Of a stretch of 64,000 nucleotides of DNA, positions 43,754 to 56,079 are shown in pieces. The translations under genes were made by a program, and so were the position numbers. This stretch comes from an uncultured Verrucomicrobiae bacterium. Its GTDB lineage: Bacteria > Verrucomicrobiota > Verrucomicrobiia > Limisphaerales > Palsa-1400. Location of the stretch: positions 128,001 through 192,000 of the forward strand of contig CAVPOM010000017.1 of the NCBI GenBank assembly GCA_963707025.1, in the 5' to 3' direction. The notes under the pieces are model-generated. The model worked only from the letters and a program-made list of their open reading frames with translations. It ran no database searches and had not been told where the DNA came from. Each line of letters starts with the position of its first letter. Within the stretch, counting starts at the first letter, position 1.

Positions 43754-44149
43754 TTACGCGACGGCAATCTTGCGCGGTTTGGCCGCCTCCGCTTTGGGCA
43801 GCGTCAGGGTCAGGATGCCTTGCTCCATCCGGGCGCTGATCTTCTCCGCCTCAATGACAGGGTCCAGTTCGAAGACGCGGCGGAAATCAGCGGCGCTGGA
43901 TTCACGGTAGGACAACCCGGTCTCCGGCAGGGCTGGCGCCGCACGCCGGCCTTGCACGGTCAAAACGGTCCCTTCCACAAGGACGCTTACGCCGTCTTTG
44001 TTGACGCCGGGCAATTCCGCCTCCAGGACGTAACCTTCCTGGGTCTCGTAGATGTTGACCACCGGACGGATGTACTCGCGTTCGGCTGCGACGGCGGCCG
44101 GCTGGGCCGGGGCCGCCTGCTCCGTATTATTGCTGACAATTGTGTTCAT
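43754..44149 (-). CDS. Hsp20/alpha-crystallin small heat-shock protein
   Basis: PVVNIYET, AELPGV, FRRVFEL, GILTLTLPK. Confidence 0.93.
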   Translation of the reverse strand: MNTIVSNNTEQAAPAQPAAVAAEREYIRPVVNIYETQEGYVLEAELPGVNKDGVSVLVEGTVLTVQGRRAAPALPETGLSYRESSAADFRRVFELDPVIEAEKISARMEQGILTLTLPKAEAAKPRKIAVA

Positions 44150-44226
44150 AAGTAAATGTTTCCTTTTTGTTGATTGGGCCGGGACGGGATTTTCCGCCGC
44201 CACCGGCGCGATTCATTGAACCGGGA

Positions 44227-44712
44227 TTAATTGAATTCGATTTTGATTTGTTTCGGCTTGGCCTCTTCCGCCTTCGCCAGTTGAATGGTCAGGACGCCAT
44301 CGCTATAGGCGGCCTTGATCGTCTTGGTGTCCACCTGGCAAGGCAGGCTGATGCTGCGCTGGAAGCGGCCGAACCATCTCTCGGAACGGGACACGCCGCC
44401 TTGCTTCTCATCGCGGCCGCCCTTGCGTTCGCCGGACAGGGTGAGGACGCCATCTTGCAGCGAGATGTCAATGTCCTCCTTTTTCATGCCGGGAAGCTCG
44501 GCCTTGACCGTGACAGCCTCTTTGTTGTCATGGATATCCACCGCCGGGAGCCATCCGCCGGAGAACTGTGTTTCAAGCCTGGCGTCCAAAGGCGAGTCGA
44601 AGACGCTGTCCAACGATTGGAGCAGTTGGCTCAAGTCGTTTGGCAGAGTGTAACCCCGGCCCCACGGAGCCAGGCCATATCCTTCAGGTCGTTGCCATCT
44701 GGTAAGTGTCAT
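44227..44712 (-). CDS. Hsp20/alpha-crystallin small heat-shock protein
   Basis: WLPAVDI, AELPGM, ERWFGRFQRSISLP, YSDGVLTI. Confidence 0.95.
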   Translation of the reverse strand: MTLTRWQRPEGYGLAPWGRGYTLPNDLSQLLQSLDSVFDSPLDARLETQFSGGWLPAVDIHDNKEAVTVKAELPGMKKEDIDISLQDGVLTLSGERKGGRDEKQGGVSRSERWFGRFQRSISLPCQVDTKTIKAAYSDGVLTIQLAKAEEAKPKQIKIEFN

Positions 44713-44784
44713 AAAAATCAATCCTTTCTGTTTCTATCGCTTTCAGTTTCAAACTTAATCATGTTTTCCACTGAGTCCTTATAT

Positions 44785-44950: not shown

Positions 44951-45085
44951 GGCGGTTTAAGAAATTGTGTAGCTCTAAATGAGGGTGGTAGGGCGCGCAC
45001 TCCGTGCGCGCCGCGGCGGGTCCCGATAATTCGGGACCGGGACCCTGCCTTGTAATGCGGCTACAGTATTTGTGAAACCGCTCTA
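44951..45085 (+). repeat. ~135-bp REP-containing MITE-like element, copy 1
   Basis: Ends GGCGGTTTAAGAAAT / ATTTGTGAAACCGCT; internal GTAG-type REP GGTAGGGCGCGCACTCCGTGCGCGCC and hairpin GGTCCCGA-taat-TCGGGACC; close copy at 55893-56026. Confidence 0.88.
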
Positions 45086-45096
45086 ACCAGTATCTT

Positions 45097-45538
45097 TCAC
45101 TTCACCGTCACTGGGAAGCTGGCTTCGGCTTGGATTGGGGGGCCGACGATGATGAGTTTGGCCTGCCAATCCCCGGCGATCTGCGGTTGCACGGTCACGC
45201 GATACTGGCCGGGCGTGGAAGTGCGCAGGGCTTTGAAAATGCTGTGCGTGATGGAGCCAGGACCGGCCAAGCCCAGTTCAAATCGGACAGCGCCGACATC
45301 CACCAACCTCCCGCCGCCGTCACGGAACTCAATGAAGACGTCATTGCCCGCCGGTCCCAAATGCCCTTCCGAAGTGAACAGATTGGCCGTCAGATTGGTA
45401 ATCGGCGTGGTGGCAAAAGGCTGGCCGGAACATGACATGGACGGGCGGCGGTTTGGAGCGGTTCCACACCAAACAGAGAACCACGCCCAGGACAATGACC
45501 ACCGGCAAAAGATAGAATGCCTTCAGAAAAGTTTTCAC
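45097..45538 (-). CDS. YtkA/FixH-like membrane-anchored Ig-fold protein (frameshift ~45425)
   Basis: GTG start with TM anchor (KAFYLLPVVIVLGVVLCLVW) in one frame; GNDVFIEFRD..PGQYRV..AGDWQAKL in the other. Confidence 0.6.
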
Positions 45539-45785
45539 TTCACGACTCAGCTTTGGAGTGTGCCGGCAAGTCGGCACCACTTTCGCCAAGCGGGACCAAG
45601 CTTCCCGCACGCCGGACAATGCCACCTTCGGCCCCGGCCCGCAACCCCATCGTCAACCTCTGGTCCCTTCATCACTATCCCGGCGGCATAAAATCATCCT
45701 GGCATCCCGTACACTTGACTGGAGAACGGTCCTGGCCGGCGCGAATAGCCTTGACAACTTCCGCCAATCCCGCCACCATACGCCC

Positions 45786-47368
45786 ATGAGCCAAGGCGTT
45801 GACAAGCGGTTTTCGGCGGGCAAATCGAAACTCATCCTGGGTGTGCTCGTCTGCGGTCTGATCGGCGCGGCGTTGGCCTTCCGCATCCCCGGCGCGGGCG
45901 GGGCTGGCGTCAGCACTACCTTCAAGCTGCGCGAGGTTTCCGCTTTTGGCGTGGACAAGGACCACTTCCTCCGGGGACAACTCTGCCGCTGCCAGGACAA
46001 GCCATTCGCGGAGGTGAAGAATTATCCCGACTTCGCCTCCAAGGCGCCCATCTTCGGGTCGGTTCGGTTTGGCGCGAAAGCGGACCAGACCAACTCCGGC
46101 TGGCTGTATTATTTTGCCGTGGATGAAAGCCGCGGCACCGGCAAAGGCTATGACCGCCTTTATTTTGACAGCAACCAGGACTTGGACTTGCGCAATGATC
46201 CGGTGGCCAAACTCCAGCAGCATTCGCCCGATCATGCTAATGCCGTGAACTTCGGCGGCACCAAGGCGAACGTGGCCTTCGATTTTCTGAAGGTCAACCT
46301 GGCCGGCAGCGACGGCGCCTCCAACCTGGTGGAACTCATGCCGCGCCTCCTCGTCACGGCGAGCGACACGCAAACCTACTGCTACCTGTTTTTCGTGCGC
46401 ACCCGCCTTTTTGAAGGCGACATCCGCATAGGCGGCGAAAAGTTTCACGCCCAGCTCGGCAATGATTATGCCATAACACCCGGCTTCGATTCCCCCTCGA
46501 CCGCCCTGGTTCTGAGCCAGGGGCGCAATACCATTGATTGGTGGGGCGGGGACCGGCAATCGGCTATTCACAAGGTGGACGGCCACTTCTACCGCCTTTC
46601 CGCCACCCCGGCCGGCGAGTTGACCGTGCATCCTTATGAGGGAGAGTTGGGAACCTTTGAAGTGGGAGCAGGCGCCCGAAAACTGACCAATTTCAGCCTG
46701 TCCGGTTCTTTGCGCGCCAAGGATTGGGCCGTGCCGGTGGGCGGCGACATCCAAGACGGCCGGCCTGTCGAGGCCAAGCGTTGCCAGATTCCGGTGGGCG
46801 ATTACCTGCCGGAGTATCTCTCCCTGCAATTCGGCCGGCTGCAAATAAATGTTTCGCAAAACTACCATTCGGAAGGCAAACGGCAGAGCCGGGAAGGCCG
46901 GGCGGACGTTTTCGGAATGGCCGTCCGCAAGGACCAGCCGTTCGTGCTGGATTTCTCCAACAAACCCGACGTGATGTTCGCTTCCCCCGCCCCGGGTCAG
47001 CGGATCAAAGCGGGCGACACCCTCATGGTCATGGCCGTGCTGGTGGACCCGAAACTGGACATCATGATCCGCGGACTGGACGACACTTCGCGCAAGCAGA
47101 CCAAGGATGCCGAGGGCAAGCCCCTGGGCTATGAACGGACCCTGCCGCTGGATCCCACCGTGATCATCACCGGGCCGGCGGCGAGAAAGTGGCTGAGGGC
47201 GTCATGCCCTTTGGGTGAGACGGCACCTGCGGGTATTCATGGCGAGTGCCAAAAGATCTCAAACTGGACGGCCGGGCGGAAACTTTCAACATCCAGGTGT
47301 TTTACGACACGCTGGAACTTTACGGCAAGGTCAGCGCCAGCCGCCCCGTCACGGTCTATCGCGAATGA
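45786..47368 (+). CDS. Putative exported selenoprotein C (MPFG-U-DGTC); Sec at 47216-47218; 1-nt frameshift ~47171
   Basis: N-terminal TM; YDRLYFDSNQDLDL shared with paralogs; restoring one C gives EKVAEGVMPFG-TGA-DGTCGYSWRVP plus an open tail (49 aa after TGA) to the stop at 47366-47368. Confidence 0.8.
47232..47250 (+). promoter_or_regulatory. SECIS-like hairpin 1
   Basis: GGTATTC-ATGGC-GAGTGCC, loop at +21 after TGA. Confidence 0.8.
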
Positions 47369-47442
47369 ACGGGGCGCCGGGCCGCGGATCAACCAAACTT
47401 GTCGTCCGCTGGCACAAAAATTCAATGAAAGAAAGAATCCTT

Positions 47443-48234
47443 ATGATCCCAAAGTTCCATAAAGCAAACCGCGGCTTTGCCGTGGCGGCCTTCTTGCTGG
47501 CGGGCCTCGGACTGGTGACGCTGACGGACGCGCAAACCGGCGCCAATCCCGACACCACGGCCCCCGCGCAGGCAGATGGTCCGCCGCGCATTCTCGCCAC
47601 CTCGCCCAAGAGCGGCGTCAACAATGTGGATCCGGCTCTGAAGGAGATCACCATCACCTTTGACCGCGACATGGAAGGCGGCATGTCCTGGACCGGAGGC
47701 GGGCCGGCCTTTCCCAAATCGCCGGAGGGGGCGAAGGCCCGTTGGCGCGACAAGCGCACCTGCGTTTTGCCCGTGACGCTCCAAACCGGCCATGACTACC
47801 GCGTCGGCATCAATTCACCCAGCTTTCAGAATTTTCGGAGCGCCGCCAGCGTGCCGGCCGCGCCCACCGCCATTGTCTTCAGGACCAGCGGCCCGAAGGT
47901 CGAAAGCAAAGCGCCTGAGATTGTCAGCCTCAACCCGGCCAATGGCGCGAGCGATGTCAGCCCGGCGCTGACCGAGTTGCGGGTCACCTTCAACATGGCC
48001 ATGGGGAATGGATGTTCCTGGACGGGCGGCGGTCCCAGGTATCCCGTTATTCCTGCCGGGAAGAAAGCTTCTTGGAGCAAGGACCACAAAACTTGTGTAT
48101 TGCCGGTGGAGCTGAAACCAGGCTCGTCGTATCAATTGGGCCTCAATAGCCTGTCGTACAAAGGCTTTCAGAGCGAAGACGGCGTTCCGTTGAAACCGGT
48201 GACCTACACCTTCAAAACGAGCGATGCGCCGTGA
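47443..48234 (+). CDS. Exported protein with two bacterial Ig-like (Big_5-type) domains
   Basis: Signal peptide; two repeats P.I...P..G...V.PAL.E...TF...M..G.SWTGGGP..TCVLPV.L. Confidence 0.82.
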   Translation: MIPKFHKANRGFAVAAFLLAGLGLVTLTDAQTGANPDTTAPAQADGPPRILATSPKSGVNNVDPALKEITITFDRDMEGGMSWTGGGPAFPKSPEGAKARWRDKRTCVLPVTLQTGHDYRVGINSPSFQNFRSAASVPAAPTAIVFRTSGPKVESKAPEIVSLNPANGASDVSPALTELRVTFNMAMGNGCSWTGGGPRYPVIPAGKKASWSKDHKTCVLPVELKPGSSYQLGLNSLSYKGFQSEDGVPLKPVTYTFKTSDAP

Positions 48235-48271
48235 CTGTTCCGTAACGCGCTGATGCTTCCCGGGCTGCTGA

Positions 48272-50038
48272 ATGGTTGCCATCAATGTTATGAAACCTGA
48301 TCGGGCCGCCAGAACCTCCCTGATCATTCCTCGATGTTTCCAAGCAGCCGCTGCCGGAAACACCGGGGTTCTGCTGGCGTCTTTGATTTTGTTTCTCTCC
48401 GCTTGCCCGCCAGCCAAGGCCCGCGAAAGTCCACCTGCCGCCGGGGCCGCGGTTGGCGCCGCAGTTGACTTGTTGCAACGCTATCCGACCAAGTTGGCGG
48501 CGGGCGATACCAACCCGAATCAAGCCCGGTCATGGGAATTCACGGACGGCGACATCTTTCGGGTGACACAGTTTCGTCTGGCGGCGGGCAAGGAATTGCG
48601 GGTGGAGACAGGGCCCGCTGACCTGGGCATCGGCCACTGCGCGGATGGCGCCGTCTGGGCGGTGCTCATCCCGCGAGCCGGCGGAACACTGACCAGTCAA
48701 GAGAGCAACCAGGAAGCCATCGCCCATGTGTGGCTTCGGTTTCACCCGAAGGAGATCAGACACCTGTTCCCGCCGGAGACGGTGTTCGCCGGCGGAGCTG
48801 TCAACTTGTCAGCCCAGATGCGCCTCATTGCCAATGCCAAGATGACTTCAAGCTGGCAGGCCGGAGGCAGGGCCATGATTCCGGAGCCAAAGGACATGAC
48901 CGTGGATGTGGATGCCAAGAATGGCTGGCGTCGGTTCTTCGCGGTGGATCAGCAGTCCCAAACGGCAGAATACGTTGACGCCTTCGCCAACCGGTCCGTC
49001 AAGCTCCCGCCGCCTCTGACGCAAGGCGCAGCCCAGGCGGCTTTTGATCAACTCTGGGAGGCATTCGATCGCGACTACGCCATGTTCGTGCTCCGCCCGG
49101 AAGTGGATTGGGCAAAGTTGCGCGAGCAGTATCGTCCGCCGGCGCTCGCCAGCAAATCCGCCTATGAGTTGGCCGGCGTCTGCGCGGACATGCTGGCCAA
49201 GCTCCGCGACCTGCACATCTGGCTGACGGTCGCCGGCGCGCCAGTCCCGGTGTTTAACCGGCCCCGGTCAGCCAATGCCAATCCGCGAGCCTGCCAGGCC
49301 CTTCTCGGCGGTTTCAAACAGGAAGGACGGGTGGCTTGGGCCGTCACGACCAACCACATCGGCTTCATCGCCATCTTCGGCTGGGACGATCCGAAGATTC
49401 CGGCGCAGTGCGGCGAAGCCCTGGAACAAATGCGCGCTACCCGCGGGCTGATTGTGGATGTGCGCCTGAACGGCGGTGGTGGCGAACCATTGGCCGCACG
49501 ATTCGCGGGCCGTTTTCTGGAGAAGGAGTTCGTCTATGCCTTTAGCCAGTTTCGGAACGGCCCAAGCCACACGAACCTGACGGACAAGTCCCAACGCGCC
49601 ATCGCGCCGCGCGGGCCGTGGCGCTACGACCGTCCCGTCCTGTTGCTCATCGGCCAGAAGTGCATGAGCAGCGATGAATCCTTCGTCGGCATGATGACGG
49701 GCGACCCGCAGGTCACGACCATGGGCGATCACACTTGCGGCTCCAGCGGCAACCCCGAAATCGTCCGCCTGCCACTGGACATGACGGTGAGCGTGCCGCA
49801 GTGGATTGATTACCTGCCGGACGGCACGCCGCTGGATGAGCGCGGGTTCCAACCGCAGATTCCGTTTCAGCCGGCGCCCGGCGCGTTTGAAGGCGGTCGG
49901 GACGACCTGCTCGCCGCCGCGCTGGCGCGTCTGAGTCAGGCGCCTTTGCCCGGCAAACAGATTGAAGGACCCGTGTTTGAACCCGCGACTTCCGACCTGC
50001 CGGATCATAGCCAGGGCGTGGAGGAAGAAGCCAAGTGA
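48272..50038 (+). CDS. S41 family peptidase with Tricorn-C1-like domain, possible lipoprotein
   Basis: FDQLWEAFDRDYAMF..VDW, LRDLH, IVDVRLNGGG, CMSSDESF, TCGSSGNP; LSAC lipobox-like. Confidence 0.9.
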   Translation: MVAINVMKPDRAARTSLIIPRCFQAAAAGNTGVLLASLILFLSACPPAKARESPPAAGAAVGAAVDLLQRYPTKLAAGDTNPNQARSWEFTDGDIFRVTQFRLAAGKELRVETGPADLGIGHCADGAVWAVLIPRAGGTLTSQESNQEAIAHVWLRFHPKEIRHLFPPETVFAGGAVNLSAQMRLIANAKMTSSWQAGGRAMIPEPKDMTVDVDAKNGWRRFFAVDQQSQTAEYVDAFANRSVKLPPPLTQGAAQAAFDQLWEAFDRDYAMFVLRPEVDWAKLREQYRPPALASKSAYELAGVCADMLAKLRDLHIWLTVAGAPVPVFNRPRSANANPRACQALLGGFKQEGRVAWAVTTNHIGFIAIFGWDDPKIPAQCGEALEQMRATRGLIVDVRLNGGGGEPLAARFAGRFLEKEFVYAFSQFRNGPSHTNLTDKSQRAIAPRGPWRYDRPVLLLIGQKCMSSDESFVGMMTGDPQVTTMGDHTCGSSGNPEIVRLPLDMTVSVPQWIDYLPDGTPLDERGFQPQIPFQPAPGAFEGGRDDLLAAALARLSQAPLPGKQIEGPVFEPATSDLPDHSQGVEEEAK

Positions 50039-50085
50039 ACGTGCGGTGCGGCAAAAAAGCCCCCCAAGTCACCGCCAGCAGCGCG

Positions 50086-50973
50086 TTAAATTGATGACTT
50101 GTTCGTATCGCTCGGCGGCGTGTTTTGCGGCAGGGCGAAGCACGGCTCCAGGGCGCCGCAGGTGGCGCATTCCAGGCAGCGGATGCAGCCGGAGACGTTG
50201 ACGGCCTGGTCCACTTTCACGCCCATCGAGCAGCGGCTGCGGCAGAGGTTGCATTCGACGCACTGCTGAGGATTGAACCGGAGATGAAACAGGCTGAATC
50301 GGTTGAAGAGCGCGAGCAGTCCGCCGAGCGGACAAAACATCCGGCACCACGGCCGGTGAATGAAAAGCGCGACGGCAAGGAATGAAAGCAAAAGCCCGGT
50401 CTTAAAACCGCTCATGATCCACCCGTGGCCGGCCAGCAGGCTTTGCACCGAGTAAGGCACGCCCGCTTCCAGCGCGCCCGCCGGACAAAGCCGGCAGATG
50501 GACACCACCTGCTTCTCAAACGGAATGCCTTTGTAACCCAAAATCAGCGGCAAAAGAATCACCAGCCCGCCCAGAACCACGTAACGGATGCTGCCGGTCC
50601 AGGACGGCAGGTTGATTTTCCGAGTTGTGATTTTGCCAAGCAAGTCCTGGAGAAAACCGAACGGACAAGCCCAGCCGCAGACGATGGAACCGCCCACCGC
50701 GCCAACCAGCAGCAGCACGCCGATCAACAAATACGGCGCTTCCCCAACCACCGGCAGCAGCGCCGCGTAGTTCGCCATCACCCCTATCGGGCAGGCGAAA
50801 GCCGACAGCGGGCACGAGTAGCAGTGGAACACGCAGCCGGGAATGCCATGCAGCCATTGGCCCGCCGGCGCCAGCCACACCCCCAGAAAACCGGTTTGCA
50901 CCCAGGGACGGACGCGGGCAAGCATCCGCCCTCGAGCGGCGGCCTGGGGCAATGCTGGTGGCTGATGGCTCAT
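50086..50973 (-). CDS. Membrane 4Fe-4S binding protein (NapH/YccM-like polyferredoxin)
   Basis: CYSCPLSAFACPIG, CGWACPFG, CRLCPAG, CRMFCPLG, CVECNLCRSRC, CIRCLEC. Confidence 0.92.
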   Translation of the reverse strand: MSHQPPALPQAAARGRMLARVRPWVQTGFLGVWLAPAGQWLHGIPGCVFHCYSCPLSAFACPIGVMANYAALLPVVGEAPYLLIGVLLLVGAVGGSIVCGWACPFGFLQDLLGKITTRKINLPSWTGSIRYVVLGGLVILLPLILGYKGIPFEKQVVSICRLCPAGALEAGVPYSVQSLLAGHGWIMSGFKTGLLLSFLAVALFIHRPWCRMFCPLGGLLALFNRFSLFHLRFNPQQCVECNLCRSRCSMGVKVDQAVNVSGCIRCLECATCGALEPCFALPQNTPPSDTNKSSI

Positions 50974-50983
50974 GGATTAAGAG

Positions 50984-51011
50984 GGCTGAAGGCTGAAGGC
51001 TAAAGGCTGAA
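50984..51011. repeat. 7-bp array (GGCTRAA) x4, left arm
   Basis: ggctgaa ggctgaa ggctaaa ggctgaa. Confidence 0.92.
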
Positions 51012-51043
51012 ACATGGGGGTTGTGGGAAAAATCTTCATGAAT

Positions 51044-51412
51044 TTAGCTTTTTGCGCAGCCTTTGGCCGTTTTATCAACGCTTGTGAAAATTGCGATGAG
51101 TTGGCGCGTTTCCTCGAGCAAGCCGGCCATCCGGGCTTGCGTGACACAACCGCCTTCCACCAGCAGTCCGAGCCAATACTCGGTTTCTTCGATTTCCTTG
51201 AGACAGTCTCCAACCTTGGAAATAAACTCGGCTTTCGACCGTCCGCGCGAAGCCTCGCGATAATTCGCCCCGACCGAAGTTCCCGAACGAAGCACCTGCT
51301 TGCCCAGCACTTGCGCAACCGTGCTGGACTTGGGCAACTTGGAATACAAATGAATGATCCGAAGCGCGAACGCCTTCGTTCTCGGTTTCAAATCTTGCGG
51401 CTCATCACTCAT
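51044..51412 (-). CDS. Four-helix-bundle protein (23S rRNA IVP-like family)
   Basis: DLKPRTKAFALRII, QVLRSGTSVGANYREA, SKAEFISK, EIEETEYWL. Confidence 0.93.
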   Translation of the reverse strand: MSDEPQDLKPRTKAFALRIIHLYSKLPKSSTVAQVLGKQVLRSGTSVGANYREASRGRSKAEFISKVGDCLKEIEETEYWLGLLVEGGCVTQARMAGLLEETRQLIAIFTSVDKTAKGCAKS

Positions 51413-51469
51413 AATGCAAACGACAGATTTCACATTCAAATTCAAACTTATCTCAAAAACGCAGCCGAT

Positions 51470-51511
51470 TTTAGCCTTCAACCTTTAGCCTTCAGCCTTT
51501 AGCCTTTAGCC
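51470..51511. repeat. 7-bp array (TTYAGCC) x6, right arm, inverted relative to 50984-51011
   Basis: tttagcc ttcaacc tttagcc ttcagcc tttagcc tttagcc. Confidence 0.92.
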
Positions 51512-51519
51512 TTTCTAAT

Positions 51520-51538
51520 CGGCCACGCCATGCGGCCG
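51520..51538 (-). promoter_or_regulatory. SECIS-like hairpin 4 (in 3' UTR)
   Basis: Minus strand CGGCCGC-ATGGC-GTGGCCG, loop at +21 after the TGA at 51552-51554. Confidence 0.85.
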
Positions 51539-51542
51539 GGGT

Positions 51543-51917
51543 TTATTTCATTCAAGTGGGACAGGGTGTTTTTGCGCTCGTGTTTACGCGGATTTTCCAC
51601 GCCGGCGGCCGGTAATTGGCCTGTTGTTTGGCCCAGCGGTCCAGCGCCTCGCCCGGATTGGCCACGTTATCCAATTTGGGCGGCGGTGGCGGCGCAACCT
51701 GGTCCGGGTATTGCAGGCCGCTGGAGGAGAAGGCCGTGACCAACTGCGTTTCCCACGCGGTGTTGCCGTCCACCGTGTCCACCTTGGTCAGATGCCGCGC
51801 GCCGCAAAAAACCACCACCGCGCCGGTCAGCGCCACGACGAATCCGCCCCAGAAATCGTGGCCTTCCCGCGCGCGCAACGCGCGGTTGACCGGTGGCTGT
51901 GGGACTCGTTTGAACAT
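51543..51917 (-). CDS. Putative small membrane selenoprotein with C-terminal CxxU (KTPCPT-U-MK); Sec at 51552-51554
   Basis: ATG 25 nt after the tRNA-Sec 3' end; one TM (FWGGFVVALTGAVVVFCGA); TGT CCC ACT TGA ATG AAA TAA then SECIS. Confidence 0.82.
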
Positions 51918-51941
51918 GCTAAAGGGGTGGAGGGGGCAAAT

Positions 51942-52038
51942 TGGCGGAGGTGGATGGGAATCGAACCCACCTGGGACTTTGTTGAGCCCCACACTGGTTT
52001 TGAAGACCAGGAGCGCCACCAGGCCGCCCCACACCTCC
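51942..52038 (-). tRNA. selC: tRNA-Sec (anticodon TCA)
   Basis: GGAGGTG/CACCTCC-G-CCA acceptor, CTGGT-CTTCAAA-ACCAG anticodon arm, long variable arm TGGGGCT..AGTCCCA, GTGGG-TTCGATT-CCCAT T arm; 97 nt. Confidence 0.97.
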
Positions 52039-52352
52039 GCACCGGGTCGCTGCGCCGCCGGCCGATGGCAGGCGTGATTTATTTCCGGTGGGCTTCCTCA
52101 TACACCTATTGTGACAGGTTTGGCCGATACTTCAATGCGAATAAATTACATCGGCCAATCAACGTCTGTCATCCTGCCGCCCAAGCCCGCCACAATCAGG
52201 CCAAACACCAAAAGTATGTATCCGACAGTCGCCATCCCTTCGTAAATTAAACCATGCCGATCAACATGCTGCTCGTGAAACTCAACCCGGCCGCTAGCGC
52301 GATCACTTCGCCAGTTTTTTGATCTCCGCCTCCAGTTCGTCGAGGGCAAAAT

Positions 52353-53621
52353 CTAAGTTCTTGGTTTGAGCATCAGCGGACTGGTCTCCACCTGGAACGG
52401 GCTGACAATTTTGACGCTGCCAGTCAACGGACGCTGCGTATTTTTGGGCTCCCGCCATGAGAGCGAACAAACGCCGCCTCATCCAAACTCGAAAGTGCTG
52501 GAAAAAACCAGGGTTCCAGTGGTGCTGGCCAGCACCAGTTTTGGCCCCTGCGGGCGCTGCCCGCCGCGCAGCATTTCTATGGATTCCTCCTGCCGGCCCA
52601 CAAATTGGAGACTAAAGTTGATCTGGCGGTCGGCCCCCTCCGCCGCCTTGAGCACGGCTTGCACCGGCTCGCCGATTTTGAGCAAGGCGGTCTTGTCGGC
52701 GGCGACCTGGAAGCCGGCGGTTTTTGGAAAACCAGAGCCGGACAGCGTCCAGGCCGCCCCTTTTTCATCCTTGCGGTTGATCGTCCAGCGGACGACCCGG
52801 TAATGGCCGGCCGGCAAGGTGACTTCGCCGTTGACCGGTTTGCGCACGAAATGGCCGTTCTCACCGAAAACGACCAGTTCGGAAATGTTTTCCGGCACGC
52901 GCACCTGGCCGAGCGTGACGTCCTCCGCCTTTTGCACCTTGACAAACGCGCCGTCGCGGGCCACTTCGATCCGGTAAAGCTTGCCGTTGACTTCCAGCAT
53001 CCGGCCCAAGAAATGTTCGCTGGTCTGGTCGCCCTCGATCTGGACTCGGTCGCTGTCATAGGCATCGGCGCCGACGTCGTTGAACGTGCCATTGACGTTG
53101 CCGTCAATCAGTTGGAGGCGCTTTTTCACGCCGTCGAAGTTCACCATCCCTTCATACCAGCCGGCGGAGGAGGCCAGCAATTCCGCGGGGCCGGTTGCGG
53201 ATTCATAAAGCCGGAACTCCAGATGATAGGTGATCGGCCCGTCCCCGCCCTTGAAAACCAGGCGGGCCGGCGGAAATTCGGCGTTGGGATTGGCCCGCGC
53301 TTGGAGAGGCGTTTTGTCGTCCAGCCGGCCATTGCCGTTGCTGTCAATGAAGAGCCGGTCATACGGCCCGCCCTTGCGCGAGCGGTCCAGGCAAACCCAG
53401 CGCCCGCCGCTGGGATCCATCGGCGTCACCCAGCGCGCGAAATAGGGCGCGGCGTTCAGCTTGGGCAGGGCGACGCCGGGCGGCGGATTGGTGGTCAGGT
53501 CCAATTGGTGGTAGGCCTGGCCCTGCGCCCCGGTGTGGTATTGCAGCCTTTGCTCCGTTTGCGCCCAGGCGCTGCCGGCCAGAACCATTCCGGCCAGAAT
53601 CAATTGTTTGGAAAATTTCAT
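52353..53621 (-). CDS. Putative exported selenoprotein B (FEFG-U-GGVC); Sec at 52479-52481
   Basis: Signal peptide (SAWA|Q); YDRLFIDSNGNGRL; ORF-track stop TGA is followed in frame by GGVCSLSWREP.. (41 aa) to TAG at 52353-52355. Confidence 0.85.
52448..52464 (-). promoter_or_regulatory. SECIS-like hairpin 2
   Basis: Minus strand GCTCTC-ATGGC-GGGAGC, loop at +21. Confidence 0.8.
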
Positions 53622-53652
53622 AAGGTCGCGGTTGATTTTTTCTTCCTCAAAT

Positions 53653-55779
53653 TCAAGTTTTCAGACTGGCCTCCAGCAATGGCGCCCTCACCGGCGGCAA
53701 CTCCGGCTTCACGTGCAGCAGCGATTTGAGCCGTTCGCGGTAAAATGGACTGGCCGACGACAGGATCAAGAACGGCAGCAGCACCGCGAAATGGAAGGCC
53801 GCCACCAGGAGAACGGGAGCAAACAATACGCTCCAGTCAATCCGCCCGCTTGAGCCTATCATCTCTATTAAAAAGAAAGGCAAGCCGATCAGCACCCAGA
53901 GAACGGCCGGCAGGACGAGCAGCCAGATATAAAGTCCGAGCGGACGGTAACGACCGCGGCAAATCAGGCCGGCAAGACTCAGCGCCACCGAACTGACCAG
54001 AACGCACAGGGCCAGCGCCACGGCGACTGGAAACGCTTCGTCCGTGGAACTCCAGTCTTGCCGCGCGACAAAGGCCAGCCCGCTGAAACCCGTCAAGACG
54101 GACAGGATGCACAGAAAAGTGACGAACCGATGTTGCCGCCGCAGATAATTTGACAGAAGCCAGACTGCGGCCAGACCAACCGCCAGCGCGGCGATGACAT
54201 CCAGGAAAAAATTCGTTCCCGGTGGCAGGATGTCCGGCGGCGCCAGGGTCAGCGCGATCAGGCATCCGAGCGGCAGCCAGATCAACCACGCGGCGCCACA
54301 ACGATTGGGTTTGAAGGCGAGCAACCCCAGGATGGCCAGCCACGGCAGCAACAGCGGCGCAAAACCGGGCAGCACCCAGTCGTAGGCGACCTGCGGCCCT
54401 TCCTTCGCGCCCAGCGCACCGAGGTCCGACGAAGCCACAATGGCCAGTTTGCCGCCGGCGGTGAGAGGCACTCGCCACGAGTGCGAACAGGTCCCGCCTC
54501 AGCCAAACTCAAAATCGCCCGTCGCAATTTTCTTTTCCCCGCAGTAAATCGCGAAGGCCGGCGGCTTGGAGCGGTCTTGCGCCGCCATTTGGTAAGATTC
54601 GCGGCCCGCGCCCACCAGGAGATAATCCAGCCGCAAATCCTGCCCGTGGCGGCTGGCGCTGACGGTATTGGTCAACGGCCCGCCCACGTTCAACACCAGC
54701 GGGGTCTTGCCGTCCACCGCCATTTGCCCGAGGCTCTGCGTCTGGTTGGCACTGCGGAAGGCCGCGGCCCCGTTTTTTTCGAGCTGGATCTCAAGCTGGT
54801 TGTAGCTGCCGGTCGGAATTTTGACCAGGCCTGCCGGCTGATCGAGCATCACCAGATACGGCCCGCCGCTCAGAACCAGGCGGCCGATCAATTGGCCGGT
54901 GATTTTCACTTCGCCCAGCGCGACGGATTGCTCGGTGAATTGGAGCGTCGGCCTGGCTTCGCCGTTTTCCGAACCTGCGGTCCACTCCAGTTGATAGGCG
55001 TGGCCATCCACGAAAACTTTCCGCGAAGGGGGAACAGGAACACTGGCGAGCAAACCGTCGCCCGCGTTGAACGCCTGGGCTCGCTTTTCCCAGGGGCGCA
55101 GCAGCAACCGGCTGTTCTGCAACAAGCCCGACGGGCCCCAGATATTTTGCACGATGCCCACCTGCCAGTCCCGCCCTTGCAAGGTCATTTTGCCTTGCCA
55201 GAACGAGCGCACCGCCGCGGAACAGACAAGTTGCGAAGGCGGACCATAGTCATAGAAGTTGAGGTCCGCCAGCACCCGCCACCTGCCGGCAGGGGTGTTG
55301 AAAAGCAGGTGGACGTTCGTGAAGCCCTGATAATTTGCCGGCCCCGTCGCGCCGGCCAAAAACACGCCGGAGGGATCGTCGGTCAAATCCTGGTTGCGAT
55401 TGAGGTCCAGGTAAAGTTTGCGCGCGTCGCGCTGCCAGAGAAAGGCAATGGCATTGCCCGCATCGCCCGCGAAATTCAAAGCGCCGCGAGCGATTTTGCC
55501 CGAAAGCGCCGCCGGCTCCTTTTTGAAAGGCATGGATTGCGTCCCCAGGCCAACGCCCCAGTTGTTGACGCTATAGGCTGTTTCCTGATATTCCAGCGAA
55601 GCCACCGTCGCGTTTGAGGAGGGGGAACCGGCCGGCGCGCCCTCCGCCGCGAGAAGAACAGCTCCCGGCCAAAATACCGCCATCAGCGTCCACGTCAGCC
55701 GGGCCACCCGGACGTTTCCAAGGCACCGCCAAGATAAACCATCAGTCCTTTGCTTTGCCATTAGACATTTCATTAGCAC
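53653..55779 (-). CDS. Putative selenoprotein A: exported domain + FEFG-U-GGTC + multi-TM C-terminal domain; Sec at 54499-54501
   Basis: ORFs 54499-55779 and 53653-54471 are in the same frame, separated only by TGA-GGTCSHSWR; KLYLDLNRNQDL shared with paralogs; exact start uncertain. Confidence 0.85.
54468..54484 (-). promoter_or_regulatory. SECIS-like hairpin 3
   Basis: Minus strand GCACTC-GTGGC-GAGTGC, loop at +21. Confidence 0.8.
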
Positions 55780-55892
55780 ATCTAAACACCTGTTTCAACA
55801 GAAATCTGTAAATATAAAAATCTGTAATGGTCCAAAGTGTTCGCCGATCCAGAATCGAAGGTGTAAAAGTTTTGGTTCGGCCTTGCTTCCAG

Positions 55893-56026
55893 GGCGGTTT
55901 AAGAAATTGTGCAGCCCTAAACGAGGGTGGTAGGGCGCGCACTCCGTGCGCGCCGCGGCGGGTCCCGATAATTCGGGACCCGCCCTTGCCGTGCAATGCG
56001 GCTGCAGTATTTGTGAAACGGCTCCA
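55893..56026 (+). repeat. ~135-bp REP-containing MITE-like element, copy 2 (direct orientation)
   Basis: Closely matches 44951-45085, including an identical central REP and hairpin. Confidence 0.88.
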
Positions 56027-56079
56027 GCCGGAAGCGGATGCGGTCAATGGGTGCCCCTCCAGCCATACGGTTCATCAAC

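Follow-up and report, generated by a model that had tools for sequence, protein, structure and literature searches.

Four candidate selenoprotein genes around a selenocysteine tRNA gene in an uncultured Verrucomicrobiae bacterium: a conserved cassette and a possible extracytoplasmic redox relay

The window analysed here is a stretch of 64,000 nucleotides (nt) of contig CAVPOM010000017.1 (assembly GCA_963707025.1) from an uncultured Verrucomicrobiae bacterium. Its positions 44951-56026 hold a gene for the selenocysteine (Sec, U) tRNA, selC, and four genes with an in-frame TGA codon, which an earlier note had proposed to be UGA-recoded selenoprotein genes grouped with selC; this proposal is supported for all four of them. 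The tRNA-Sec gene lies on the minus strand at 51942-52038, where the note had placed it, carries the anticodon TCA and is the only tRNA found in the window by ARAGORN, with which Rfam agrees (RF01852, 72.9 bits against a gathering score of 47). Gene A (45786-47368, plus strand; Sec codon 47216-47218, true stop TGA 47366-47368) encodes a putatively exported selenoprotein with a U-bearing domain and represents the A-type paralog. The other three genes are on the minus strand. Gene B (51543-51917; Sec codon 51552-51554) starts 24 nt downstream of selC and encodes a 124-residue protein that is probably membrane-anchored with its N-terminus inside and ends in AKTPCPT-U-MK-stop. Gene C (52353-53621; Sec codon 52479-52481) encodes a 422-residue, all-β and presumably exported protein with Sec at residue 381 (U381), and gene D (53653-55761; Sec codon 54499-54501) a 702-residue protein in which a predicted exported ectodomain with a U-domain (U421) is followed by a domain of seven transmembrane (TM) helices at residues 463-668. 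The in-frame TGAs are thus found exactly where they had been reported (47216, 51554, 52481 and 54501), and the Cys described as lying three to four residues from each is at position +4 relative to U in A, C and D (U-x-G-x-C) and at -3 in B (C-P-T-U).

All four products are predicted to be exported or membrane-anchored. Hydropathy places TM segments at residues 16-34 of A and 22-40 of B and finds the seven helices beyond the ectodomain of D, and the leader of C (MKFSKQLILAGMVLAGSAWA-Q) was read off the sequence by eye, in line with the signal peptides or TM helices claimed earlier. On the same strand as B, C and D, at 50086-50973, the window encodes a NapH/MauN-like membrane polyferredoxin with four CX2-3CP motifs and two 4Fe-4S ferredoxin motifs. 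Its Fer4_5 (PF12801) score of 54 bits exceeds the gathering threshold of 22, the columns of the CX3CP and ferredoxin cysteines are conserved, and 17 Cys are invariant; a search of the PDB sequences with a profile of this protein gave no matches. By crude hydropathy, the NapH-like protein would have its invariant C160 and C163 in a periplasmic loop, and the tail of B would likewise be periplasmic.

Comparison with relatives indicates that the coding sequence continues past the TGA. In a panel of 40 related genomes, 11 of which have relatives of D, residue 421 of D is spanned by 28 matched stretches, every one with exactly one TGA, and the D orthologues can be aligned across residues 1-702 at 52-77% identity. 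A wider scan, which took one genome per species and a peptide pattern 3' of the TGA, gave 376 stretches with 319 confirmed relatives; the best 80 loci, from Verrucomicrobiota and Planctomycetota and with just 39 of at least 15 kb, were analysed. Among the 131 motif sites in these loci the codon is TGA at 130 and TGT at one, TAA, TAG and TGG do not occur, and U and the Cys at +4 are co-invariant at 130 of 130 sites. As grounds for abandoning the proposal, the earlier note had named homologues that end with TAA or TAG at this position and a lack of conservation 3' of the TGA; the former is seen at none of the 131 sites, and the downstream sequence is conserved in relatives. All but one of the 32 C-type frames have one TGA and no further stop, and 20 of these 31 extend past 430 residues, reaching 442-983 residues (up to about 550 after the TGA), with Pfam matches 3' of the TGA to Laminin_G_3 (LamG; 1e-19 and 1.4e-29) and F5_F8_type_C. 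The alignment of C omits L079, in which the match length is not a multiple of three, and L052, whose extended frame has three TGAs. In D-type proteins, a conserved membrane domain of about 280 residues with seven TM helices is always present after U. The sole TGT (Cys) form (L096:+2866) still has an intact hairpin of the kind described below, which makes it a sequencing error or else a substitution of very recent date.

The second line of evidence is a hairpin resembling a Sec insertion sequence (SECIS), which follows each TGA at the same distance, as had been claimed: in all four genes it occupies offsets 17-22/28-33 from the U of UGA and consists of a stem of six to seven base pairs and the loop (A/G)UGGC. 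In A it lies at 47233-47249 on the plus strand (GUAUUC-AUGGC-GAGUGC, with two G-U pairs), and on the minus strand at 51521-51537 in B (GGCCGC-AUGGC-GUGGCC, 3' of the stop codon of B), at 52448-52464 in C (GCUCUC-AUGGC-GGGAGC) and at 54468-54484 in D (GCACUC-GUGGC-GAGUGC). Across 108 distinct sequences, 99.8% of 648 cells are paired and four of the six pairs show compensatory changes; none of 500 shuffles did as well, and in slid registers the paired share falls to 26-67% of cells. A stem-loop at fixed spacing 3' of UGA that is supported by covariation, as SelB/SECIS decoding would have it, is therefore present. Codons +6 and +10 are complementary at every one of 130 sites (CTC/GAG 78, TAC/GTA 31, CAC/GTG 16, TAT/ATA 2, TAC/GTG 2, TGC/GCA 1). 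As the stem is coding, covariation is forced upon the protein (L/E, Y/V and H/V at +6/+10). In D-type genes of Anaerohalosphaeraceae the loop is GUGUC and Trp becomes Cys with the stem retained, which shows that the conserved element is the G-U and not the Trp. Gene B, which is unrelated to A, C and D, shares both loop and offset. A strict pattern scan of the whole genome returns eight sites, of which six are A, B, C, D and two paralogs on contig C11; the same scan with control triplets returns 0-7 sites. Judged by these features, the A/C/D and B genes are almost certainly genuine SelB/SECIS-dependent selenoprotein genes.

A, C and D are paralogs with the common motif F-E-F-G-U-G-G-x-C-S-x-S-W-R-x-P (in a looser form, F-x-F-G-U-x-G-x-C-x-x-S-W-R-x-P) in an immunoglobulin (Ig)-like domain. 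A quick maximum-likelihood IQ-TREE search with 125 U-domains, excluding gene A of the window on account of the upstream stops that its frameshift creates, separates A-, C- and D-type clades with SH-aLRT values of 100, 99 and 97. Every clade contains both phyla as separate subclades, which implies that the paralogs predate the split of their carriers or were moved once as a set. The structural model of C (pLDDT 90.1, pTM 0.83) is an all-β, multi-sandwich protein in which U381 is placed in an exposed turn of the last domain, between DSSP strands 371-376 and 384-390. For the U domain (residues 318-422), a wide structure search returned just generic Ig-, fibronectin type III (FN3)- or MG-like sandwiches with Z of at most 9.6, and Foldseek with the whole model gave no match in the PDB at E ≤ 0.001. 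Two D-x-N-x-N-G-x-L/F-x-D loops are conserved, which we take to be Ca-binding. The membrane domain of D (open reading frame (ORF) under table 11) gave leads of at most 0.78 in a protein-atlas comparison, all of them named 'hypothetical protein'.

None of the four proteins belongs to a family in the databases searched: A-D match no family in NCBIfam r20 and Pfam-A at E ≤ 0.01, with just noise at E ≤ 5. Literature text searches found no description of the A/C/D or B families, Table S2 of BSepDB being outside their reach. The earlier note had recognised no described selenoprotein family here, and this view holds for the 119 prokaryotic families listed in Table 1 of PMC13188914, none of which fits A-D; the families of Haft & Tolstoy 2025 were compared only as listed in that table. 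Standard gene calling misses the recoding, as had been suspected. The best 120 of 744 public C homologues have 362-396 residues, end at U381 and are named 'hypothetical', and the best 120 of 273 clusters of B relatives mostly have 120-121 residues and cover at most 98% of B. An exhaustive profile search with the C type yields 5066 cluster representatives at E ≤ 1e-3; among the best 150 of these, 144 end at or before the residue preceding U. Six run past the site as non-Sec homologues, with Gly, Arg, Leu or diverged sequence at the position of U, and five of the six have also lost the Cys at +4. A Cys aligned to Sec is accordingly found at one of 131 sites and in none of the six full-length non-Sec representatives; such Cys homologues are typical of selenoprotein families, not defining. 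By these sequence comparisons A/C/D and B are two apparently uncatalogued families, which the databases hold only as truncated hypothetical proteins. In one of the metagenomic representatives (P0149, 826 residues), a C-type ectodomain with neither Sec nor Cys follows a membrane domain at the N-terminus that contains an HExxH-type motif and to our eye resembles BlaR1/M56.

The conserved core of the locus consists of A/D/C-type genes and the series selC, B and NapH-like polyferredoxin. The D ectodomain is present in 65 of the 80 loci, the D membrane domain in 55, tRNA-Sec (counted within 8 kb of a C-type gene) in 31, B in 30 and A in 10; the NapH-like gene is found in 30, so that the NapH/YccM-like 4Fe-4S protein of the earlier note proves to be a conserved partner. 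B follows selC in 29 of 29 loci with both, and the three loci with only one of the two break off within about 400 nt of that gene. Likewise, the NapH-like gene is directly downstream of B in all 25 loci that have both. The end C-x-T-U-x-x-stop is there by construction in the 30 loci in which B was found by pattern scan; without the motif filter, U-x-x-stop recurs in 10 of 10 Planctomycete loci and in four Verrucomicrobial copies. Versions of B from Planctomycetota are shorter, with about 85 residues. The cassette is conserved in Verrucomicrobiota (metagenome-assembled genomes (MAGs) of Limisphaerales type from soil and peat) and in anaerobic Planctomycetota, and probably forms one functional unit. 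In five loci of Planctomycetota (L109, L119, L122, L123 and L126) the hairpin after the UGA of B overlaps the ATG of the NapH-like gene (…CCAUGGUGGCCAUGG…), an arrangement that suggests translational coupling of Sec decoding to initiation at the next gene.

Hints at function come from the neighbours of the cassette in other genomes. Relatives carry a protein of 830-1100 residues with multiple CarboxypepD_reg domains, a gene which the window does not have at the same position. The Planctomycete copy in L119 has a weak match to AhpC-TSA, a thioredoxin-fold family, at its C-terminus (E 1.9e-6), and none is seen in the Verrucomicrobial copy of L049. These Planctomycete cassettes also encode another selenoprotein, located at L119:12026-13771 (minus strand) and correspondingly in L108, whose T4_deiodinase-like domain contains an in-frame TGA (…SSYT-U-PPF…) and is fused to a multihaem cytochrome c region. 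The best joint explanation, to which we give a probability of about 0.55, is a genuine selenoprotein cassette that works as an extracytoplasmic selenol/thiol redox relay. The NapH-like protein would take electrons from the quinol pool or the cytoplasm via its two 4Fe-4S clusters and the CX3CP cysteines and would reduce the C-x-T-U tail of B, which would serve as a mobile selenylsulfide arm on a membrane anchor. B would then hold in its reduced state the U-x-G-x-C loop that A, C and D carry on their last Ig-like domain, and these U-loop proteins would act on a substrate outside the cell that is held by Ca-loop, β-sandwich or lectin-like modules. If selC and B are co-transcribed, the supply of tRNA-Sec would be coupled to demand. 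That the steps run exactly in this way has slightly less than an even chance. More tentative still is a self-contained, selenium-obligate envelope redox machine, in which the polyferredoxin would recharge the B arm, the arm would service Sec-Cys turns on Ig-like proteins of the surface or periplasm that are unable to use Cys, selC would be co-transcribed with B and the polyferredoxin, and these Verrucomicrobiota and Planctomycetota would keep the Sec trait mainly for the cassette.

The alternative that survives best accepts the selenoproteins as real but gives the Sec-x3-Cys loop and the CxTU tail a different task: instead of passing electrons on, they would be binding sites or carriers for a chalcophile metal (Cu, Hg or Ni) or for a chalcogen (S/Se chains). 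The NapH-like protein would then be a metal reductase in the manner of CcoG, or the Gly-flanked Sec would hold covalent intermediates as the GGCGG arm of SoxY does. The exposed turn in which the model of C places the Sec/Cys pair suits such a carrier, and the rarity with which Cys replaces Sec points to a need for selenium chemistry itself; the fact that Sec is nearly obligate, and that non-Sec homologues lose U and Cys+4 together, is compatible with relay and carrier alike. The window does contain a weakly matching YtkA-like neighbour, but this gene occurs in none of the 80 loci, and no metal transporter, chaperone or MerR/CsoR-type regulator is recurrent in the cassette. Several metal-related selenoprotein families in Table 1 of PMC13188914 have U/C pairs, yet no Pfam metal-binding domain is matched by A-D. 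It is the recurrent thioredoxin-fold and multihaem neighbours that favour an electron relay over a metal or chalcogen carrier, and the carrier is considered unlikely.

Several points weigh against the best explanation, recoding and relay together. The U-bearing domain is a generic Ig/FN3-like sandwich with no thioredoxin fold and no readable catalytic site, the NapH-like protein stays far below the curated cut-offs of TIGR02163 (43.1 against 213.05 bits), NosR (49.9 against 1000) and PRK09477 (33.9 against 234), and the topology of A-D and of the NapH-like protein comes from a hydropathy script only. The invariance of Ser-Trp-Arg is uninformative on the protein because the SECIS loop encodes these residues, and a Sec/Cys comparison is inapplicable where Cys homologues are almost absent. 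Single-sequence folding of the 60-nt stretches gave z values of -1.15, -0.75, -0.42 and +0.13, no better than shuffles, so that the case for the hairpin is comparative and not thermodynamic; the hairpin of A depends on its two G-U pairs, and the minimum free energy fold of its 60 nt is another structure. In addition, the assembly of this organism contains six frameshifts (selA one, selB three, selD one and gene A one), and reads mapped to 45786-55761 gave zero cover across 47118-47450, the site concerned in gene A.

The frameshifts would be real if the cassette had once been functional in the lineage and were now decaying in this organism. The genes selA-selB-selD are located on a contig other than that of the window (G000:C12:64900-69322); tRNA-Sec, SelA, SelB and SelD are thus all encoded, with frameshifts in the sel genes, and the absence of selA, selB and selD from the genome, which the earlier note would have taken as a refutation, is not observed. 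The frame of gene A is split by a 1-nt gap near 47168-47174, and in all 10 loci with an orthologue the frame is uninterrupted. This assembly also has rpoB in 10 frame pieces and rpoC in about 10 (G000:C6:393346-401325); as these two genes cannot be pseudogenes and are fragmented alike, the frameshifts in the sel genes and gene A are read as assembly indels. Decay is made very improbable by this and by two further findings: of the 15 relatives with a selA match above the cut-off, 12 have the gene in a single intact frame (the other three matches being partial or two-piece), and no damage is seen in B, C, D or the two C11 paralogs, all of which keep their TGA and hairpin. Across the panel, selA occurs in 8 of 11 D-carrying relatives and in 7 of 29 non-carriers; all three D carriers without a selA match have tRNA-Sec, and two of them have selD. 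In two relatives (G008:C19 and G016:C108) selA is on the contig of D and C, about 13-14 kb away, so the sel operon is also near the cassette in some genomes. Indel errors in the present assembly (88% complete, 18 contigs) are of the order of at least one per kb and will break many gene calls. A Sec-type formate dehydrogenase alpha (FdhA) was not found in this 88%-complete genome (best TIGR01553 match 96 bits against a cut-off of 814, without in-frame stop), and the known selenoproteome of the organism beyond the six genes may be small.

The remaining genes of the segment are local. Of the neighbours named in the earlier note, Pfam bears out the tandem Ig-like protein (Big_5, E 1.6e-11) and the S41 peptidase (Peptidase_S41, E 1.3e-17), and the YtkA-like protein has only a weak match (E 0.0038, 18.3 bits) under the 25.9 cut-off; as parts of the system all three fall away, since they occur in 1, 4 and 0 of the 80 loci, respectively. 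A gene for a four-helix-bundle protein (23S rRNA IVP; TIGR02436, 80.9 bits) lies between B and the NapH-like gene at 51044-51481 (minus strand), flanked by inverted arrays of the heptamer AAGGCTR (I1-I4; 50981-51032 and 51469-51518). Two of 80 loci have it, relatives carry B and the NapH-like gene side by side, and it is a local insertion outside the cassette. Just upstream of the interval, two tandem paralogous small ORFs on the minus strand (43754-44203 and 44227-44721; 33% mutual identity by tblastn) may encode Hsp20/alpha-crystallin proteins.

Direct repeats of 138 nt with internal palindromes are present at 44951-45088 and 55893-56029. Being 97% and 85% identical and bracketing exactly the interval of the earlier note, they could be taken as the ends of an 11-kb mobile island; this idea is rejected as highly improbable, as the repeat belongs to a dispersed intergenic family (89 blastn matches for one copy across many contigs), no integrase is seen, and relatives keep the gene order regardless of the repeats.

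Among the frames of 300 residues or more in the window, true stops are most often TGA (32 of 56), and the true stop of D orthologues varies between TGA and TAA, which together exclude a reassignment of the codon. Gene callers do take the four TGAs for stops, and a UGA-to-Trp reassignment has been reported for some Verrucomicrobiota (PMC13462651), but split or truncated genes with hairpins as terminators, or a UGA read as Trp or Gly, have next to no chance against in-frame conservation and Pfam domains that carry on past the TGA, the lack of any TAA, TAG or TGG at the motif sites, this use of TGA as a true stop, and a genome that encodes tRNA-Sec and the sel genes.

Current methods for selenoprotein discovery lean on Sec/Cys pairs, and families without Cys homologues may, by its own account, escape deep-Sep (PMC12013277). 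The C-type family, which is nearly without Cys homologues, marks this blind spot. If the reading is true, it would add an exported, Ig-like selenoprotein outside the thioredoxin fold in which Sec is almost obligate, and would give an orphan branch of NapH-like polyferredoxins a partner that can be tested. It would also offer a possible reason for the retention of the Sec machinery in Planctomycetota-Verrucomicrobiota-Chlamydiota (PVC) bacteria of soil, peat and sediment. For annotation, it implies that A/C/D and B genes are mis-called in hundreds of MAG proteomes and that public databases contain two large families (the 5066 C-type representatives and the 273 B clusters) just as truncated 'hypothetical proteins'.

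Known systems resemble parts of the cassette. The NapH-like protein resembles the NapH/MauN/NosH polyferredoxins (TIGR02163, PF12801) in its Fer4_5 CX3CP motifs, its four TM helices and the two 4Fe-4S motifs at its C-terminus; unlike these, it pairs with a selenoprotein, and neither the window nor the loci read show a NapG/NapA-type partner. The DUF1573 (PF07610) 'UGC' selenoproteins come from phyla similar to those of the cassette. They differ from A, C and D in their motif, which here is G-U-G-G-x-C, and PF07610 is matched neither by A-D at E ≤ 0.01 nor by residues 1-380 of C at E ≤ 5. What the two have in common, by the entry in PMC13188914, is an exported β-sandwich with Sec beside Gly and Cys. 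The cassette would also bring reducing power through the membrane to exported Cys/Sec pairs, much as DsbD/CcdA to TlpA/ResA relays do, of which the same source lists selenoprotein versions (DsbA-like, DsbG-like and UGC-TlpA; PMC13188914). In contrast to these relays, the thioredoxin fold is missing from A-D, an Fe-S protein would serve as the membrane component, and neither DsbD nor CcdA is seen in the window or the loci read. B has Sec third from the C-terminus, as have UXX-star families 1 and 2 (NF041114 and NF041211) as given in PMC13188914. Unlike the UXX-star proteins, B has no NCBIfam match at E ≤ 0.01, carries an N-terminal membrane anchor and the sequence C-x-T-U, and always has its place between selC and the NapH-like gene.

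The set as a whole compares with the canonical bacterial SelB/SECIS selenoprotein genes, of which fdhF of E. coli is the archetype. The genes described here depart from these in forming new families, in the visible amino-acid covariation that results from the stem, in the near absence of Cys homologues, and in the SECIS of B, which comes after the stop codon and, in Planctomycetota, shares sequence with the beginning of the gene that follows. At the same time they share with the canonical genes the in-frame UGA, the hairpin about 17 nt further on, the G and U of the apical loop, and a genome with tRNA-Sec and selA, selB and selD.

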